Positions 2,986 to 58,593 of a DNA stretch of 64,000 nt are shown one piece after another. The stretch comes from Bacteroidales bacterium (lineage in GTDB: Bacteria > Bacteroidota > Bacteroidia > Bacteroidales > UBA4417), in NCBI GenBank assembly GCA_016707705.1, contig JADJHD010000004.1, forward strand, positions 24,960 through 88,959, written 5' to 3'. The position numbers were made by a program, and so were the translations under genes. The first letter of the stretch is position 1. Each line of letters starts with the position of its first letter. The notes beneath the pieces are model-generated. The model ran no database searches. It saw only the letters and a program-made list of their open reading frames with translations, and had not been told where the DNA came from.

Positions 2986-3199
2986 TTGCGGGTTTCGGAT
3001 TGCGGGTTTCGGAATTTTGAATATGGGTGTTTGCCCGCTGGTGGTCGGATAAAAAGGACTGAATTGTTCAATGACCAAATCCGTGTAGATCTGTGTTTCC
3101 AGTGTCATCAGTGTTCTATATTGTGCTACTTGCAAAATTTAGAACCACTAAGGCACTAAGGGCACTAAGAGACACTAAGAACTAAACTGCTAACAACTA
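2984..3199. repeat. intergenic modular repeat locus L1 (tandem 14-mers, degenerate hairpin, GCTACTTGCAA block, ACTAAG stutter)
   Basis: GATTGCGGGTTTCG x2 at 2984-3011; TTGCCCGCTGGTGGTCGGAT 3031-3050; GTGTCATCAGTGTTCTA...GCTACTTGCAA...TAGAAC 3102-3145; ACTAAG/ACTAAC words 3147-3199. Confidence 0.8.
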
Positions 3200-4573
3200 A
3201 AGCAGCTGCGTGATCATGCCGGGAATAAGTCCGAGGGCGAACTGGGCGAGGCAGAGGAGAACCAGGAAGACTTTCAGCCAGGGATTAAGGCCGATAACAA
3301 TTTGTCCGCCCTCCTTGAAGAACATGGAAATAACAGGCTTCAAATAGAACGCCAGACTGATTGCAGAACCAAGAATAGCAATGATAACCAGGTAAAGATG
3401 TCCGCTTTCCAGCGTTGAGGAAAACAAGGCAAATTTCCCCATAAAACCTGCCAAAGGCGGAATACCTGTCAATGAAAGCATGGAAATAGCCAGCGTAATG
3501 GCAATCAGTGGATTCCTTCTTGCCAGTCCCTGATAATGCTCCATCTTGTCATCATAGATAAAATCCTTTACCAGCATCAGCACTACAAAAGCGGCATAGG
3601 TAGAAAGAGAATAGGCTGCCAGATAAAGCAGTACTGCACCCATTGAAGTTGCATTTGACGCTACGAGAGCCATCAGCAGGTAACCAGTATGTGCAATACC
3701 CGAATAAGCCAGGAGTCGCTTGAAAGTGCGTTGATACAATGCAGTGACATTAGCCAGAATAATGGTGGCAGCTGAAAGAATCACCACTGTGGTGCTCCAG
3801 AAGGGCTGTATTGCCATGAAACTATGGTTGAAGAGGCGGAATATAGCTGCAACGCCAGCCACCTTTACAACAGTCGCCATGAAGGAGGTGATAACTGTGG
3901 GAGCACCCTGATAAACATCCGGAACCCAGAAATGAAAAGGAACGGCTGCAACCTTGAACACTAATCCGATAAGCGTGAGCAGCATTCCTGCATAGAACAT
4001 CTTCGGCAAATCGTTCGCATGAGAAGTGGCATAAAGTCCGATGGCTTCCAGGTTAAAGGAGCCGGCGGAACCATAAAGCAGAGCAATTCCGAAAAGTAGA
4101 AATCCTGAAGCGAAGGAGCCCATCAGGAAGTATTTCATGGATGCTTCCTTGGCGAGGTTATCAAATTTCTTGCTTCCAGCCAGAACGTACATCGAAATGG
4201 AAAGTGTTTCAATCCCGATAAACAGCATGGAAAGATTGGAGAAGGAGGTCATCAGCGTTCCCCCGATAAGGGAGAAGATCATCAGGATATAGACATCATC
4301 CAGCGGTTTTACAACATTTCTGAAGTAATGTCCGGCAATAAGCACCACCAGCATGGCCATTACAATGAGAATGGTGTTGAAGGCAACTGCATAATTATCA
4401 ACGAACATCATTTCGTTGTAATAATGCCTGTAGGTGTTCCAATCGTTGATATTCAGTGCCAGTGCAACTGCCATTCCGGTCACCAGCACGGGAACTATCC
4501 ATTTATATTTATGCCAGGCTCCGATCAGCATGGTGATGATCGCTAGTACCGACAATGCAATTAATGTGGCCAT
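3197..4573 (-). CDS. nuoN: NADH-quinone oxidoreductase subunit N
   Basis: 458-aa polytopic antiporter-like protein, last gene of nuoA-N order, ND2/NuoN-like sequence. Confidence 0.9.
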   Translation of the reverse strand: MATLIALSVLAIITMLIGAWHKYKWIVPVLVTGMAVALALNINDWNTYRHYYNEMMFVDNYAVAFNTILIVMAMLVVLIAGHYFRNVVKPLDDVYILMIFSLIGGTLMTSFSNLSMLFIGIETLSISMYVLAGSKKFDNLAKEASMKYFLMGSFASGFLLFGIALLYGSAGSFNLEAIGLYATSHANDLPKMFYAGMLLTLIGLVFKVAAVPFHFWVPDVYQGAPTVITSFMATVVKVAGVAAIFRLFNHSFMAIQPFWSTTVVILSAATIILANVTALYQRTFKRLLAYSGIAHTGYLLMALVASNATSMGAVLLYLAAYSLSTYAAFVVLMLVKDFIYDDKMEHYQGLARRNPLIAITLAISMLSLTGIPPLAGFMGKFALFSSTLESGHLYLVIIAILGSAISLAFYLKPVISMFFKEGGQIVIGLNPWLKVFLVLLCLAQFALGLIPGMITQLL

Positions 4574-8004: not shown

Positions 8005-8313
8005 TTACCATTTGAGGCGGTTCAGCAGGTGAATATCCACTGAATGGGTGTACCTGTAAACCATTACCAGGATCGCCAGTCCAATGGCAACCTCGGCTGC
8101 TGCAACCACCATGATAAAGAACACGAAAACCTGTCCGGCCGGGTCATTCATATAGATGGAAAATGCGGCGAGCAGCAGGTTAATGGAGTTCAGCATTAAT
8201 TCCACCGACATGAAAATTGCAAGCGCATTCCTTTTTACGAGAACTCCAACGACCCCTATCACGAAGAGCAGGGTGCAGAATATCAGGTAATCGGTTATTG
8301 TAATTGGAGACAT
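8005..8313 (-). CDS. nuoK: NADH-quinone oxidoreductase subunit K
   Basis: ~100-aa three-helix ND4L-like protein; start MSPITITDYLIF at 8313 inside longer ORF 8005-8370. Confidence 0.9.
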   Translation of the reverse strand: MSPITITDYLIFCTLLFVIGVVGVLVKRNALAIFMSVELMLNSINLLLAAFSIYMNDPAGQVFVFFIMVVAAAEVAIGLAILVMVYRYTHSVDIHLLNRLKW

Positions 8314-8370
8314 GATTATGTGTTTGTATTTTGAAAGCTTTAGAGGATTATAAAGTATATTGTATTGCAA

Positions 8371-8407
8371 TTCAAGAATCCAGAAGTCAGGATTCAGAAG
8401 TCAGAAT
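8371..8407. repeat. 3' inverted stutter arm of the four-helix-bundle cassette (CAGAAT word family)
   Basis: TTCAAGAATCCAGAAGTCAGGATTCAGAAGTCAGAAT; imperfect inverted partner at 8753-8786; encodes last codons and stop of the ORF. Confidence 0.65.
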
Positions 8408-8752
8408 GGCTTGACTATATGCTTCTAATAATTTGCTCACTTCTTCTAACTTTTGTTTCAGCCCAGTATTATCGCCATATTTCAAATCTTGAGCCAGTAT
8501 CAGATAATACCTGCATTCTTCAAGGGATCCTTGTGCTATATTCATAAATCGCAATTTGTCATTCTTCCCTTTCTTCTTGAATCCCTCAGCAATATTAGCA
8601 GGAACAGATATAATTGCTCTTCGCAATTGAGAAGTTAATCCAAACATTTCATTCTTTGGGAATGTACCACTATATTCATAGGTCAATAAGACCAACTGAT
8701 GTGACTTCTGCCATACAAATAAATCTAAAAAACTTTTTGCAGGTTTATTCAT
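8387..8752 (-). CDS. four-helix-bundle protein (23S rRNA intervening-sequence protein family, Avd-like)
   Basis: 121 aa from MNKPAKSFLDLFVWQKSHQL...; motifs LTSQLRRAIISVPANIAEG and GSLEECRYYLILAQDL typical of PF05635/TIGR02436 (recalled); lies between nuoJ and nuoK, co-oriented. Confidence 0.85.
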   Translation of the reverse strand: MNKPAKSFLDLFVWQKSHQLVLLTYEYSGTFPKNEMFGLTSQLRRAIISVPANIAEGFKKKGKNDKLRFMNIAQGSLEECRYYLILAQDLKYGDNTGLKQKLEEVSKLLEAYSQAILTSES

Positions 8753-8786
8753 ATTCTGGCTTCTTGGATTCTGAATTCTGAATTCA
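8753..8786. repeat. 5' inverted stutter arm of the four-helix-bundle cassette
   Basis: Plus strand ATTCTGGCTTCTTGGATTCTGAATTCTGAATTC; sense strand GAATTCAGAATTCAGAATCCAAGAAGCCAGAAT abutting the ATG; terminal AGAAGYCAGAAT matches the other arm 11/12. Confidence 0.65.
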
Positions 8787-8832
8787 TTTTGCTTTAACAT
8801 TACTCATAATTGAGAGAAATTTAAACAGTCTC

Positions 8833-9324
8833 TTAATCTTTTTTACCCAGCAAAACCGCTCCAACCATTGCTGAAAGGAATAGAATGGAGGAAACCTCAA
8901 AGGGGAGCAGGAAATCATTGTAAAGCACTTTCCCAAGGTTTTTTACCAGTCCGATCTGCGTGGTAGTGGGGTCAGTGGTCATTACCATGTCAGTTTGCTT
9001 GAGAACACCTACAAGTGTGAGCATCAGCAGTCCGCCTGCCACAACGGCGCCAAGTTGCACCAGTGCAGGTTTTCGGAATTCAGATTCATTGTTGAGGTTC
9101 AGCAGCATCACGGTAAACAGGAACAGCACCATGATGGCACCGGCATAAACTATGATGTGCACTACCGCCAGAAACTGCGCATTCAGAAGTATGTAGTGAC
9201 CTGCTATGCAAAACATGGCAAGGGTCAGGTACAGAACGTTGTGCACAGGTTTCCTGGAAATGACTACCATCAATGCCGAATACAAAGCCAGGATGCAAAG
9301 GAAATAAAACAGGTAAACCTTCAT
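8833..9324 (-). CDS. nuoJ: NADH-quinone oxidoreductase subunit J
   Basis: 163-aa ND6-like membrane protein in operon order. Confidence 0.85.
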   Translation of the reverse strand: MKVYLFYFLCILALYSALMVVISRKPVHNVLYLTLAMFCIAGHYILLNAQFLAVVHIIVYAGAIMVLFLFTVMLLNLNNESEFRKPALVQLGAVVAGGLLMLTLVGVLKQTDMVMTTDPTTTQIGLVKNLGKVLYNDFLLPFEVSSILFLSAMVGAVLLGKKD

Positions 9325-16254: not shown

Positions 16255-16635
16255 TTATTCCCACTCAAGGGCTTTCTTCCGTAACAGGTAAAAAAAACCT
16301 ACCAGGAAAACACCGAGAAACAAGAGCATACTCAGGAATCCATTCCAGTCTCCATTCTTGAAATCAACTGCAAAAGGGTAGAAGAAAATCACTTCTACAT
16401 CGAAAAGTACGAAAAGTATGGCTATGAGAAAATATTTTACTGAGAAGGGAAATCTTGCATTTCCTTTGATCTCGATGCCGCATTCGAAGTTCTCTTCCTT
16501 ATGCAGGGTTCTGATCTTCTTTCTTTTTCCCCCAATATAATGTGACAGGGCCATTGTTGTGACCACAAATCCAAGAGCCACAATGGTTTGTATTAAAACG
16601 GGCAAGTAGTCGTCCGGTAAATGGAGAGCATTCAT
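16255..16635 (-). CDS. nuoA: NADH-quinone oxidoreductase subunit A
   Basis: 126-aa ND3-like protein, first gene of the operon. Confidence 0.9.
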   Translation of the reverse strand: MNALHLPDDYLPVLIQTIVALGFVVTTMALSHYIGGKRKKIRTLHKEENFECGIEIKGNARFPFSVKYFLIAILFVLFDVEVIFFYPFAVDFKNGDWNGFLSMLLFLGVFLVGFFYLLRKKALEWE

Positions 16636-22366: not shown

Positions 22367-22714
22367 TTTGGAGATGTGGGGATGCGCAGCGTAGCGGAGT
22401 CCGCCGGCTGGCGGATGAGGATGTGAGGATGCGCAGCGTAGCGGAGTCCGCCGGCTGGCGGATGGAGATGTGGGGATGCGCGCGGCGGCTGGCGGATGGG
22501 GATGTGAGGGAATCTAGAATAGATGAATCAGTGAAAATCAGTTGAATCTGCGTCATCTGTGTTCTATTTTTGGCTACTTGCACAATCAACCTCTGAACCC
22601 CAAATTCCAAAAATTCAAAACTAACAACTAAACTACTAACAACTAAACTACTAACAACTAAACTACTAACAACTATCAACCCCCAATAGACCAAGGAAAT
22701 AACAAACAAGCAAT
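22367..22714. repeat. intergenic modular repeat locus L3 (47-bp units x2.6, GCTACTTGCA block, 15-mer x3.7)
   Basis: Units start 22381, 22428, 22475 with hairpins TCCGCCGGCTGGCGGA at 22400 and 22447; M2 block 22550-22587; CTAACAACTAAACTA x3 perfect (22621-22665) plus partial copy to 22675. Confidence 0.88.
22541..22572 (+). promoter_or_regulatory. candidate promoter inside repeat L3 (GTTG -33-like, TATTTTTG -7 box)
   Basis: TATTTTTG at 22565-22572 fits TAnnTTTG; TTG 20 nt upstream; 143 nt upstream of rfbB ATG. Confidence 0.3.
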
Positions 22715-28820: not shown

Positions 28821-29495
28821 GTTCGGGGTTCGAGATTCAGGGTTCAAAAGGGTAGATTCCTGCAAGTAGGAGTTGTTAGTTGGGTTTTGTGTTGATTGGA
28901 AGACTTGGGTGAACTCGGAAATTTGTGCCTTGGGTGTTGTTAGTTGTTAGTGGCTCAGGGGTTGAGATGTGGCACTTTCCCTTTTGTCTTTTGTCCGCCA
29001 GCTGGCGGATTGTCTTTTCTCTTTATCCTTTTGTCTTTAGCCTTTTATCTTTTGTCTTTTGCCTTTTGTCTTTGTCCTTTTGTCTTTTGTCTTTTTCCGC
29101 CATCTAGCGGATTGCCTTTTCTCTTTATCCTTTTGTCTTTTGTCTTTTGCCTTTTATCTTTTGTCTTTGTCCTTTTGTCTTTAGCCTTTTATCTTTTGTC
29201 TTTGTCCTTTTGTCTTTAGCCTTTTATCTTTTGTCTTTGTCCTTTTGTCTTTAGCCTTTTGTCTTTTGTCTTTGTCCTTAGAGTTGATTGTTTGCACTCG
29301 GTTTGTCTAACGATGGTCAGGCAATGGTCATTCGATAGTCATTCAATAGTTATGCAAAATTCACACAATTGTTATATGAAGAATCAGCGAAAATCAATCT
29401 GAAGCCAGCGAATCCGCGTAAATCGGCGAGAAACCTTTCGTCTTTTGCACTTTTTACCATTTCCTTCTGTCTTTTGTCATTTGCCTTTTTCTCAA
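28821..29495. repeat. intergenic modular repeat locus L4 (largest; ~300-bp CTTTTGTC stutter with hairpins 102 bp apart, plus M4/M5 blocks)
   Basis: Hairpins TCCGCCAGCTGGCGGA 28994-29009 and TCCGCCATCTAGCGGA 29096-29111; pyrimidine stutter 28977-29278; GTCAGGCAATGGTCATTCG 29316-29334; ATCAGCGAAAATC...GCGTAAATCGGCGAGAAACC 29383-29435. Confidence 0.88.
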
Positions 29496-51742: not shown

Positions 51743-51904
51743 CCCCGCAGCTTGCTGCGAGATATTCTTATTTTAGTTGTTTGGTGAATACAGAATTCAG
51801 GAGTCAGAATTTGAAAATTTGGTTGTTATTCTGTCCGCCTGGGCGGATGGCTTCTGTCCGCCAGCCGGCGGATGAATTCTGATACCCCGCTGCTTGCGGC
51901 GGGG
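51743..51904. repeat. intergenic modular repeat locus L5 (two hairpins between inverted CAGAATTC words, two extra palindromes)
   Basis: CGCAGC-TT-GCTGCG 51746-51759; CAGAATTCAGGAGTCAGAAT 51791-51810; TCCGCCTGGGCGGA 51834-51847; TCCGCCAGCCGGCGGA 51857-51872; TGAATTCTGA 51873-51882; CCCCGC-N8-GCGGGG 51885-51904. Confidence 0.75.
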
Positions 51905-52045
51905 TCCTTCATTGTTTGCTTGTGGTAAAGTCTAAAGCCGGAATCATGGATGAATCCGACTATTGTTGAAAGATGTATGATGGGAAAAGCCTGATAAAGC
52001 CCTATTTTTGTGAACAGACATATAGAGAACTGTCCAGCCATTCCT

Positions 52046-54820: not shown

Positions 54821-55225
54821 AGGGGTAAAAAAGGAAAGACAAAAGGAGAAAGACAAAAGGAAAAAGACAAAAGACAAAAGGGGGAAAGGATAAAGGGAAA
54901 AATATTGAAAGATAAAAGGCTAAAGTGGGGAGTTGGTGGTGAAGGGGTAGTCAGACAATGGTCATGCGTTGGTTCTGCAGCATCTCTGCGAAAATCCTTT
55001 GTTTTATCTGCGTAAATCTGCGAGAAACCCTTTTGCTACTTGCAAGAATTAGAAAACAGATCCGCATATGGCTGTCAAATTCTCCAATTTTCAAATTTTC
55101 ATCCGCCAGCCGGCGGACTCCGCTTCGCTGCGCATCCTCATCCGCCAGCCGGCGGACTCCGCTTCGCTGCGCATCCTCATCCGCCAGCCGGCGGACTCCG
55201 CTTCGCTACGCATCCTCACATCTTC
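54821..55225. repeat. intergenic modular repeat locus L6 (purine stutter, M4, M5, M2, 39-bp array)
   Basis: AAAGACAAAAGG-type stutter 54826-54925; GTCAGACAATGGTCATGCG 54950-54968; 54982-55030 M5; GCTACTTGCAAGAATTAGAAAACAGATCCGC 55035-55065. Confidence 0.88.
55101..55217. repeat. tandem array, 3 x 39 bp (ATCCGCCAGCCGGCGGACTCCGCTTCGCTGCGCATCCTC)
   Basis: Units start 55101, 55140, 55179; units 1-2 identical, unit 3 one substitution. Confidence 0.95.
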
Positions 55226-56150: not shown

Positions 56151-56760
56151 GGTTGCTTTTGTTCAGGGTTCGAAGTTAATAAAGGGAAGCTCCCTGCAAG
56201 GAGGAGTTGTTAGTTGTTGGTTGTTAGTTGTTAGTAGCGAGTGCTCGGTTTTCGATTTTCTAATTTTACCCAGTCTTCTTTCTCCGTGGCTCTCTGTGTC
56301 CGCCGCGGCGGATCAGTGCCTACGTGGTTCTTAAATATGCTACTAGCAAAAATTAGAACACAGATGACACGGATTATTAGGATTAGCACGGATCTGGTAA
56401 TTGTAAATTTCAATCCATTTTCACATTATCACATTATCACATCTCCACATCTTCACATCTCCACATCTTCACATCCCTATCCGCCAGCCGGCGGACTCCG
56501 CTTCGCTTCGCATCTCCATCCGCCAGCCGGCGGACTCCGCTTCGCTTCGCATCTCCATCCGCCAGCCGGCGGACTCCGCTTCGCTTCGCATCTCCATCCG
56601 CCAGCCGGCGGACTCCGCTTCGCTTCGCATCTCCATCCGCCAGCCGGCGGACTCCGCTTCGCTTCGCATTCTCACATACCCGCATTTTCAAATTATCAAA
56701 TTATCACATTTTCACATCTCCACATCTTCACATCCCCACTTCTCCACATCTCCACATCAT
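56151..56760. repeat. intergenic modular repeat locus L7 (TTAGT stutter, hairpin, M2, CACATC stutter, 39-bp array)
   Basis: GTTGTTAGTTGTTGGTTGTTAGTTGTTAG 56207-56236; TCCGCCGCGGCGGA 56299-56312; GCTACTAGCAAAAATTAGAACACAGATGACAC 56339-56370; CACATTATC/CACATCTCC words 56422-56477 and 56673-56758. Confidence 0.9.
56479..56673. repeat. tandem array, 5 x 39 bp (ATCCGCCAGCCGGCGGACTCCGCTTCGCTTCGCATCTCC)
   Basis: Units start 56479, 56518, 56557, 56596, 56635; first four identical, fifth diverges in its last bases. Confidence 0.95.
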
Positions 56761-57904: not shown

Positions 57905-58146
57905 TTTTGCTATTGCGGATTTCTGATTTCTGGTTTCGGATTGCGGATTGCGGATTTAAAGTTGCGAATTGCTCGAATTGGTGATTTTGGATATGAGTGT
58001 TCAAGGTTTGTGGAAAGCACTTTTGTCTTTTGTCCTTTTTCCGCCAGCTGGCGGATTATCTTTTGTCTTTGTCCTTTTATCTTTTGTCTTTTGTCTTTGT
58101 CCTTTTATCTTTTGTCTTTGTCCTTTTATCTTTTGTCTTTTTAATT
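57905..58146. repeat. intergenic modular repeat locus L8 (GGATTGCGG stutter, hairpin, CTTTTGTC stutter)
   Basis: GCGGATTTCTGATTTCTGGTTTCGGATTGCGGATTGCGGATTT 57915-57957; TCCGCCAGCTGGCGGA 58040-58055; stutter 58019-58146. Confidence 0.88.
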
Positions 58147-58593
58147 TTATCTTTTTACCTTCTCCACCAACCTCACCCTTTCTACCACCATCCCCTTATC
58201 CACAGCCTTACACATATCATACACTGTGAGAAGTGCCACGGAAACAGCGGTCAGGGCTTCCATTTCAACACCGGTTTGTCCGATGCAATGAACCTCGCTT
58301 CTTGCAATCACGCCATTCTCAAGCAGTTCAAGCTTGACATCAACCTTAGTCAGCAGAAGGTTATGACAGAGCGGAATCAGGCTTGCCGTTTGCTTAGCAG
58401 CCTGTATTCCTGCAATCTGAGCAACAGTGAGCACATCACCCTTCTTCATATTGTTATCCTTCACCAGCTGAATGGTTTCCGGCGCAAGCAGAATTGTTCC
58501 TTCAGCCTTGGCTATCCGTAGCTGTGAGGGCTTATCACCCACATCCACCATGTTTGCCTTTCCTTCAGAATCGGTATGTGTTAACTTTGACAT
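58147..58593 (-). CDS. moaC: cyclic pyranopterin monophosphate synthase MoaC (C-terminus apparently shortened)
   Basis: 148 aa; [37 protein letters not shown] motifs. Confidence 0.87.

Follow-up and report, generated by a model that had tools for sequence, protein, structure and literature searches.

A four-helix-bundle gene cassette between nuoJ and nuoK of a Bacteroidales genome, probably an inserted and at least recently mobile element of the intervening-sequence type

Why should two neighbouring genes of a nuo operon be separated by 519 nt that hold a third gene? The question is raised by a 64,000-nt stretch of a Bacteroidales bacterium (assembly GCA_016707705.1, contig JADJHD010000004.1, positions 24,960 to 88,959), referred to below as the window. 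The bacterium is uncultured, and its GuaB has 90-91% identity to proteins of metagenome-assembled genomes at NCBI. In the window the nuo operon is encoded on the minus strand from nuoA (16255-16635) to nuoN (3197-4573), and the nuoJ-nuoK gap (8314-8832) contains a co-oriented open reading frame (ORF) of 121 aa. The original prediction, made from the letters of the sequence, described this ORF as a four-helix-bundle gene bracketed by inverted arms and likened the whole to the intervening sequences (IVSs) of 23S rRNA; the coordinates of the ORF and the motifs quoted for it were borne out. Very probably the gap contains an inserted, mobile or recently mobile IVS-type S23p cassette. The cassette belongs to a widespread and apparently undescribed population of mRNA-resident cassettes, a literature search having found no description of arms around non-rRNA PF05635 genes, nor of the arm words. 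The features of the locus are given below in the order of transcription; loci compared with the window are numbered with the prefix L.

8833..9324, minus strand: nuoJ, the upstream host gene (TAA stop at 8833-8835; PF00499, 139.9 bits; NuoJ NCBIfam models match)
8352..8832, minus strand: entire cassette (leader, 5' arm, ORF, 3' arm and trailer), delimited by homology with a second copy, L087; the 3' boundary is approximate
8789..8832, minus strand: lineage-specific leader GAGACTGTTTAAATTTCTCTCAATTATGAGTAATGTTAAAGCAAAA, common to L087 at another locus and absent from the 90% relative L001
8753..8788, minus strand: 5' arm of tandem NCAGRAK-type words (TGAATTCAGAATTCAGAATCCAAGAAGCCAGAAT), abutting the ATG; in the same position in most of 79 related loci
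8387..8752, minus strand: four-helix-bundle (S23p / 23S_rRNA_IVP) ORF of 121 aa (PF05635, TIGR02436), co-oriented with the nuo genes
8371..8407, minus strand: 3' arm, a complementary word array (ATTCTGACTTCTGAATCCTGACTTCTGGATTCTTGAA) that encodes ILTSES* and extends 16 nt beyond the stop
8353..8370, minus strand: trailer TTGCAATACAATATACTT, common to L087
8314..8351, minus strand: residual nuoJ-nuoK spacer of about 38 nt, approximately the size of the full spacer in cassette-less relatives
8005..8313, minus strand: nuoK, the downstream host gene (PF00420, 99.7 bits; NF004320, 117 bits)

Insertion was assessed by comparing nuoJ-nuoK junctions, as the original prediction had proposed. The closest nuoJ relatives in metagenomes (L088 and L089, 87-88% identity) had spacers of 34 and 33 nt without the cassette, and the spacer was 5-50 nt in most other Bacteroidota relatives. 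Assemblies encoding an identical NuoJ protein kept the cassette at the same place, and two strains (L084 and L085) had a 16-nt GC hairpin inserted in the 5' arm. The L086 contig ends 2 nt past the nuoJ stop and was uninformative as a same-species empty site. On these comparisons, the cassette is placed as an insertion in sense just past the nuoJ stop, in a lineage whose relatives lack it. Movement was indicated by L087, from the same sample as L085, where a 99%-identical cassette lies directly past the stop codon of an ABC-ATPase gene and shares the leader (~45 nt) and trailer (~20 nt) of the window cassette. In a pairwise alignment the homology began directly past the upstream stop codon and faded after ...AATATACTT; as the L087 contig breaks off 24 nt beyond the trailer, these boundaries are not defined to the exact base. 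Relatives with 81-90% protein identity were located in a polysaccharide cluster (L001), behind a gene for a type IX secretion system beta-helix protein (L157), inside a carotenoid operon (L160) and behind a glycosyltransferase gene (L161). The six close relatives (81-99%, including the window copy) therefore occupy six different operons, and the mobility that had been suspected of the cassette is upheld by them and by the near-identical copy in L087.

Signs of decay or rearrangement were seen in some copies. In L160 (element at L160:2501-2930), where both arms are intact, a TTA-to-TAA nonsense change ends the ORF 13 codons early, L161 (L161:2501-2962) has a premature stop and a degraded 3' arm, and L056 (3001-3700) has extra partial four-helix-bundle segments in tandem. 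In Bacteroidota, small inserts of unrelated kinds also gather in the nuoJ-nuoK spacer, which is a hot spot for them: 246 nt with AAAATAGGATARGGT 15-mers (L090/L091:1992-2238), G/C-rich inverted-repeat hairpins of 113-149 nt (L097, L102 and L112), a 199-aa ORF without a Pfam match that has a PD-(D/E)XK-like motif (ECDFII...EAKK; L106:2004-2647), and a 140-nt insert that ends in CATTCTGAACTTCTGAACTTCTC, which are arm words (L151:2082-2222).

The encoded protein was compared with profile hidden Markov models (HMMs) and with known structures. The ORF scored 118 bits with PF05635 and 113.1 bits with TIGR02436, far above the curated cut-offs (33.8 and 24 bits). In a phmmer search of the PDB, 2gsc (E = 9e-17) was the sole sequence match that is a family member. 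The AlphaFold (AF2) model had four helices (pLDDT 93.7) and superposed on 2gsc, which is Xanthomonas XCC0516, with a TM score of 0.89 and on 2rld (BT_0352) with 0.76. Both the HMM scores and the fold agree with the family assignment of the original prediction, and the window protein is a member of the PF05635 family. The further label 'Avd-like', after the accessory protein of diversity-generating retroelements (DGRs), held at the level of the fold (Foldseek TM 0.75 to Avd 4dwl; 8ube also matched) and failed at the level of the profiles, where NF033474 gave 28.2 bits against a cut-off of 80 and PF22296 (bAvd) 18.9 against 40; PHROGs yielded a weak Avd match only (phrog_3206, 25.6 bits). A YxDD motif check, short of a full HMM scan, of the 59 ORFs in the window found none resembling a reverse transcriptase. 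The window protein is not an Avd. Its Pfam and NCBIfam matches were to four-helix-bundle families only, with no known transposase domain and no Y1 transposase. PADLOC, consulted for a defence role, gave no match for the cassette, and IMG/VR, consulted for phage carriage, held no relative of the protein. ORF length among relatives was 119-143 aa (median 121). The ratio dN/dS was 0.02-0.25 in close pairs; between phyla dS was saturated and dN was about 0.2. Judged by these substitution rates, the cassette gene is under strong purifying selection and its protein is conserved at the level of ribosomal proteins.

The arms were largely as described. On the coding strand the last base of the 5' arm is 8753, immediately before the ATG, as had been stated; the 33-mer quoted for it occupies 8753-8785, not 8753-8786. 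The 3' arm at 8371-8407 does encode the final six codons and the TGA stop, and the terminal 12 nt of the two arms match at 11 of 12 positions (8396-8407 against 8753-8764). Two inverted repeats were identified, one of 25 nt (8369-8393/8753-8777, 72% complementary) and one of 16 nt (8392-8407/8768-8783, 94%). The calculated arm-arm RNA duplex had an energy of -29.0 kcal/mol, compared with -9.6 +/- 2.9 in shuffled arms and reached by 0 of 300 shuffles, and the minimum free energy (MFE) fold of the gap RNA pairs the two arms. Four triple-heptamer arrays were present in the window vs. 0-1 in shuffles. The inverted repeats of the window are far beyond chance.

To place the cassette among its relatives, an element set (n = 80) was used that comprised the window cassette and 79 related loci (gene 64-90% identical, more than 12 phyla). 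The best 80 loci from one-genome-per-species contigs were 63-76% identical to the window protein and came from Cyanobacteria, Bacteroidota, Verrucomicrobiota, Nitrospirota, Acidobacteriota, Bacillota, Planctomycetota, Chloroflexota, Chlamydiota, Elusimicrobiota and Deinococcota, among others. Close relatives amounted to at least 7,998 90%-clusters at E <= 1e-10; clustering at 50% gave 18,528 representatives at E <= 1e-3, 46 of them at E <= 1e-30. The layout was nearly universal among the loci: a 5' array (TCAGGAG / TCAGAAT and variants) stops at the ATG or a few bases before it, and a complementary 3' array (ATTCTGA / CTCCTGA) covers the final 21 nt of the ORF, stop codon included, and runs past it. 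An inverted repeat of at least 20 matched nt with the same geometry was found in 60 of the 80 elements, so that other copies of the gene carry the same arms. Leader and tail were paired in 66/80 MFE folds of the cassettes (median of 29 paired nt), and an element's own arms paired better than arms from other loci in 63/80 (P = 1.7e-7). Lineages use their own 'dialects' in both arms (CAGTAG, AAGAAG, GGAGACAG, or an 8-nt unit), and unit number was highly variable among loci and strains. The conserved C-terminus, ILNSxS*, had top-codon shares of.82 for ATT,.78 for CTG,.75 for TCT and.94 for TCC, while Leu, Ser and Ile columns of equal conservation in the rest of the ORF had shares of about.4 (range about.25-.6). 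By this measure of codon usage the tail codons are constrained at the nucleotide level. None of the outcomes that the original prediction had named as speaking against it (HMM failure, an ancient arm-less gene, arm-less copies) was encountered.

Further features of the unit varied with lineage. In 5' arms outside Bacteroidota (e.g. L011, L028 and L069) the word TCAGGAG puts AGGAG about 8-10 nt before the ATG, and in Shine-Dalgarno-using phyla the 3' word CTCCTGA is the complement of the word that bears AGGAG; Bacteroidota copies, including that of the window, have mostly GAAT/AAGAA words without GGAG. Pyrinomonadaceae copies have a leader with the canonical Shine-Dalgarno sequence AAAGGAG, which pushes the 5' array about 50 nt upstream. 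In the 3' arm, the tandem xxxCTGA words provide TGA in all three frames. A cross-phylum sublineage (L035:1868-2302, L036:2955-3386, L043, L046, L065 and L081; Verrucomicrobiota, Elusimicrobiota, Deltaproteobacteria, Chlamydiota and Deinococcota) has an outer inverted repeat, GTAACTRCTCAGG...CCTGAGYAGTTAC. These outer-repeat copies were considered as true rRNA IVSs and rejected, as Rfam scans of the window and of 8 related loci found no rRNA. Distant four-helix-bundle paralogues have inverted arms that abut the ORF and are built of unrelated words. The same cassette design, with other arms, was seen for small PDDEXK_3 (PF13366, 'GxxExxY') ORFs at L001:590-1080, with CACAAAT(A) x4 upstream and ATTTGTG x5 downstream, and at L098:1186-1679, with a ~30-nt inverted repeat GGAACGCGGATGACGCAGATTGTTTATGAT at the same nuoJ-nuoK junction in another Bacteroidota lineage. 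Since the arms of these distant four-helix-bundle and PDDEXK_3 cassettes consist of other words, the inverted repeat itself is suggested as the common requirement.

The upstream ORF was co-oriented in 75 of the 78 elements for which it could be called (median gap 63 nt), and among elements sandwiched between co-oriented genes 65 were in sense and 1 in antisense. The host genes were diverse, 156 neighbours falling into 92 clusters; genes for receiver-domain proteins and histidine kinases were over-represented (26/156). No terminator-like site was found in the gap. A sigma-70-like match, TTGAAT-17-TATAAT (10/12; 8347-8375, minus strand), lies in the trailer just upstream of nuoK; its occurrence does not exceed what chance would give for the region, and it is not conserved in L087. 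The promoter consensus of Bacteroidota differs from the sigma-70 type. A promoter or terminator of the cassette's own was rejected on these grounds. Given the sense orientation between co-oriented genes and the lack of a terminator in the gap, the cassette behaves as a promoterless guest of host transcription. At some sites the gene has been kept across species, as a receiver-four-helix-bundle-receiver locus in Nostocales (L011, L012, L019, L027, L033, L042, L045, L050 and L073) and as a histidine kinase-four-helix-bundle-receiver locus in Pyrinomonadaceae (L029, L048, L053, L055, L071 and L074), which suggests long vertical retention there.

Arm words also occur without the gene. The 17-mer of the arm was confirmed to recur at 51794-51810 with 2 mismatches, and in the window it had 5 matches at <=3 mismatches vs. 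0.33 expected. The recurrence lies within the following feature.

51783..51880, plus strand: ORF-less arm pair with the left arm GGTGAATACAGAATTCAGGAGTCAGAAT (GAATACAGAATTCAGGAGTCAGAAT), a 17-nt loop, then ATTCTG..GCTTCTG..GAATTCTGA

The pair is interrupted by two nested GC mini-hairpins (51834-51847 and 51857-51872), a third hairpin lies at 51884-51905, and the 51.8-kb region folds with z = -3.3. The tie between the cassette and a wider repeat family, which had been drawn from the 17-mer, is strengthened by this arm pair and by a mini-hairpin common to both. In 390 kb of flanks around the related loci, 33 further arm-word arrays were found, many of them plus/minus pairs in the local dialect. 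ORF-less arm pairs in cassette flanks included L010:1488-1573 and 4420-4511, L038:4436-4575, L059:1365-1595, and L062:152-641 and 3894-4203; some are tight hairpins directly past a stop codon, and others enclose 100-400 nt of non-coding cargo, the same ~400-nt cargo occurring twice in L062 in opposite orientations.

Two other kinds of repeat share the window. The mini-hairpin TCCGCC-N(2-4)-GGCGGA is present in 15 copies (22372-22481, 28994-29009, 51834-51872, 55099-55218, 56299-56312, 56467-56669 and 58040-58055), some in tandem arrays with a 39-nt period (55099-55218, 3 copies; 56467-56669, 5 copies) or a 47-nt period (22372-22481). It was also found within cassette arms of other strains (the 5' arm in L084 and L085, the 3' arm in L087) and adjoins an arm in L001; it resembles a nested insertion element of very small size. 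Intergenic heptamer arrays of other words were located at 29010-29279, 58056-58155, 54834-54873, 22619-22680, 56205-56235 and 57912-57957. Their words are TTGTCTT (about 37 units at 29 kb and 14 at 58 kb), its complement AAGACAA, AACTAAC, AGTTGTT and ATTTCGG. Two of the TTGTCTT arrays flank a GC mini-hairpin, and no associated small ORF was identified at the other-word arrays.

What, then, do the arms do? Overall, the best explanation, which we hold to be somewhat more probable than its negation, is an IVS-type guest cassette, a unit of the kind that forms the S23p-encoding IVSs of 23S rRNA, resident here in a protein-coding operon. Having no promoter or terminator of its own, the cassette would be transcribed by read-through of the nuo operon. 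The arms would pair to give an imperfect stem of about 25-30 bp around the ORF, with the start codon at its inner edge, and RNase III would cut this stem as it does that of the Coxiella IVS. The cut would release a monocistronic RNA of roughly 430 nt and split the nuo mRNA into nuoA-J and nuoK-N. The protein would be made and, by homology with 2gsc and Avd, would probably be a pentameric nucleic-acid-binding ring, whose most plausible target would be the word arrays of the element itself. This RNA-stem model is supported by the Coxiella IVS, by the constant placement of the arms relative to the start and stop codons, by the sense orientation, and by the inverted arms of the distant four-helix-bundle paralogues and PDDEXK_3 cassettes. 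RNase III processing is plausible and the most likely mechanism; that it acts on this cassette within the nuo operon we judge slightly less probable than not.

Several observations weigh against an arm stem that acts as RNA. The sense stem of the window is broken into helices of 10, 4, 5 and 6 bp, arms on the antisense strand would pair better (-38.1 vs. -29.0 kcal/mol), and the whole gap RNA is no stabler than shuffles (z = 0.05), a measure that is uninformative. Across the 80 elements, sense duplexes had the better energy in 44 and antisense duplexes in 36 (P = 0.22). Mismatches comprised 74 G:U vs. 64 A:C, or 28 vs. 21 when isolated, with 29 transversions. Word number was uncorrelated between arms (rho = 0.14), and word order was no more complementary than permuted order and was not mirrored. 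None of these comparisons, from duplex energies to word order, was significant. Because of the uncorrelated number and unmirrored order, the arms look like arrays of a single word set in two orientations, able to pair in several registers, and not like a helix conserved base by base. One sublineage, moreover, has terminal inverted repeats and direct repeats of 8-9 bp, the mark of DNA transposition. As no RNA-specific signal was found, DNA-level ends and protein-binding arrays remain as alternatives. That the arms act mainly as DNA, the cassette being a small transposon or a unit like a miniature inverted-repeat transposable element (MITE) whose word arrays are its terminal inverted repeats, we consider unlikely; a transposase would act in trans, or the four-helix-bundle protein would assist, and the RNA stem would be a by-product. 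The sublineage just mentioned speaks for it: L035 and L036 are 100% identical copies in one metagenome-assembled genome with unrelated flanks, their homology is bounded exactly by the outer inverted repeat GTAACTGCTCAGG...CCTGAGCAGTAAC, L036 is flanked on both sides by AACCATTA (8/8), L043 by AAACAATGA (9/9), and L046 has 7/8. A systematic scan found the duplication pattern in 2/80 loci vs. 0 in 5 x 80 mismatched-flank controls, the arms have no G:U bias or strand asymmetry, and the inverted repeats of IVSs have long been proposed as remnants of transposition (PMC4990558). Target duplications were, however, confined in this 80-locus scan to the sublineage with the extra outer repeat, with none for the window copy. 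No transposase lies in or beside the cassettes, whose sole ORF is the four-helix-bundle protein; the very variable unit number of the arms is unusual for transposase-binding ends, and there is no reason why the inverted repeats of a transposon should adjoin the start codon and extend over the stop codon in every phylum.

Rather unlikely, in our judgement, is the proposal that the word arrays are predicted binding sites for the encoded pentameric ring, in the manner of TRAP on GAG repeats. The gene would then be the autonomous copy and the ORF-less arrays its non-autonomous partners, as with REP/RAYT elements (introduced below), and binding would control how the protein itself is translated and perhaps how arrays spread or are maintained. 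Pairing alone permits any sequence, yet the word is conserved across phyla (NCAGRAK, GACAGAT in Coxiella, GGGAATC/GGGAGTG in Xanthomonas), and the two arms share a dialect despite their unmirrored order and unmatched unit counts. ORF-less arrays use the dialect of the local cassette (CAGTAG/CAGTAT in L059), often directly past stop codons, and Xanthomonas has 186 such arrays, 70 as convergent pairs. The crystals of 2gsc and of 2rld each have five chains, RNA is bound by Avd in the DGR ribonucleoprotein 8ube, and the protein is conserved like ribosomal proteins. Against this, the distant paralogues and PDDEXK_3 cassettes have inverted arms of unrelated words, so the common denominator may be the inverted repeat; on RNA the word would be presented by one of the two arms only; and the window is full of other-word heptamer arrays without a four-helix-bundle gene nearby. 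An ordinary resident gene, whether a regulator, a Complex I accessory or a DGR Avd, with flanking repeats that are unrelated stutter, is highly improbable. Its retention at one locus across species in Nostocales and Pyrinomonadaceae, under purifying selection and beside two-component-system genes, and the resemblance of its fold to Avd (TM 0.75) would fit such a gene, but the gene is missing from the nearest nuo operons, its close relatives lie in six unrelated operons, and across phyla the arms keep both their position and their word. The Avd models, too, scored below their cut-offs, the YxDD check of the window gave no ORF resembling a reverse transcriptase, and PADLOC gave no match.

A broader reading can be offered as a tentative possibility. 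S23p/four-helix-bundle proteins would be the cognate partners of the heptamer-word arrays that many bacterial genomes contain in excess, and gene and arms together would form an autonomous selfish element. The 23S IVSs would be the first-seen special case of a hitherto unrecognised, domain-wide class resident in transcripts. Its non-autonomous derivatives would be heptamer hairpins without an ORF, the 'G-quadruplex' repeats of Xanthomonas among them. Tandem 7-nt words would be read by the pentameric ring much as triplets are by TRAP, to control processing, translation or spread.

IVS elements and the S23p ORF have reportedly been known since 1993. To our knowledge they have no known function and no known way of moving. 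Earlier work on IVSs was confined to a small number of copies in rRNA, of which some are decaying. The presence of the gene-plus-heptamer-arm unit in ordinary operons across most bacterial phyla makes the question of IVS function easier to test: thousands of copies appear intact and under strong purifying selection, and presence/absence polymorphism, recent duplicates and ORF-less derivatives provide natural experiments, to which one sublineage adds target-site duplications. Tractable hosts are available (Xanthomonas, Nostoc and Flavobacterium). Three literatures are linked, those on IVS elements, heptameric simple repeats and Avd-like proteins. For host operons, the processing model predicts that RNase III splits polycistronic mRNAs such as that of nuo. 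For annotation, genes for a 'four helix bundle protein' wedged in operons would be guest elements and not operon members.

Among known systems, repetitive extragenic palindromes (REPs) and their REP-associated tyrosine transposases (RAYTs) consist of a protein gene flanked by inverted repeats that are also dispersed as intergenic ORF-less hairpins. The window cassette is similar in that its gene is flanked by repeats that also occur as ORF-less arm pairs, at 51783-51880 and in the flanks of other cassettes. It differs in that the four-helix-bundle protein is not a Y1 (IS200/IS605-type) transposase and has no known catalytic motif, and in that the arms are tandem 7-nt words of variable number, unlike the fixed palindrome of a REP. 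Correia/NEMIS elements of Neisseria are small inverted-repeat elements that are co-transcribed with their neighbours and cut by RNase III; unlike with such MITEs, no TA or other fixed target duplication was seen for most copies of the cassette. An integron cassette (attC) was rejected, the repeats being on both sides of the ORF rather than a single 3' attC, and there being no integrase. With DGR Avd the protein shares the four-helix-bundle fold, and both are probably pentameric nucleic-acid-binding rings. The window protein, unlike an Avd, scores below the Avd cut-offs, has 9-13% identity to Avd, is neighboured by nuo genes and has no reverse transcriptase or template/variable repeat pair (TR/VR) seen nearby; word arrays are not known to bracket Avd genes.

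A further likeness is found in Xanthomonas campestris, where 186 heptameric GGGAATC arrays, 70 of them convergent pairs, lie on average 28 nt behind the upstream ORF and were read as G-quadruplex repeats (Rehm et al., 2015; PMC4692102). Array #15 lies 6 nt past accB and overlaps the start codon of XCC0516 (PMC4692102, Suppl. 2). XCC0516 is the S23p protein of PDB 2gsc, a link to the arrays that is not drawn in PMC4692102. The Xanthomonas arrays resemble those described here in being intergenic heptamers, often in convergent pairs, close behind an upstream ORF and between co-oriented genes. XCC0516 and the window gene are both four-helix-bundle genes in a housekeeping operon with a heptamer array at the ATG, and the words are related (xxGAATx / xxGAGTx); the Xanthomonas word GGGAATC is G-rich, unlike those of the window, and the comparison covers the 5' array of XCC0516.

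rRNA IVSs are typically situated in helix 9, 25 or 45 of 23S rRNA, or in 16S rRNA. The window cassette shares with the 23S IVSs of Leptospira and Coxiella burnetii (helix-45) a PF05635 protein, an ORF enclosed by terminal inverted repeats, co-orientation within the host transcript, and a sporadic distribution suggesting horizontal transfer. In the Coxiella IVS, two to three copies of GACAGAT and one GACAGAA directly precede the S23p ATG, heptamer number varies among strains, the termini form a 28-bp stem, and RNase III cleaves where the first repeat begins (Warrier et al., 2016; PMC4990558). Tandem NCAGAWN-type heptamers directly before the ATG, in varying number, are thus common to both, and with heptamers of the same type lying inside an RNase III-cut stem the IVS analogy is stronger than the original prediction had claimed. 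The window stem is more interrupted than that of Coxiella, RNase III cutting is demonstrated in the latter and inferred for the former, and the window ORF is intact and strongly constrained by purifying selection, in contrast to the Coxiella ORF, which is in decay and seems not to be translated. The host transcript, finally, is an mRNA (nuoJ-nuoK) and not an rRNA: the cassette works like a 23S rRNA IVS but by its location is not one.

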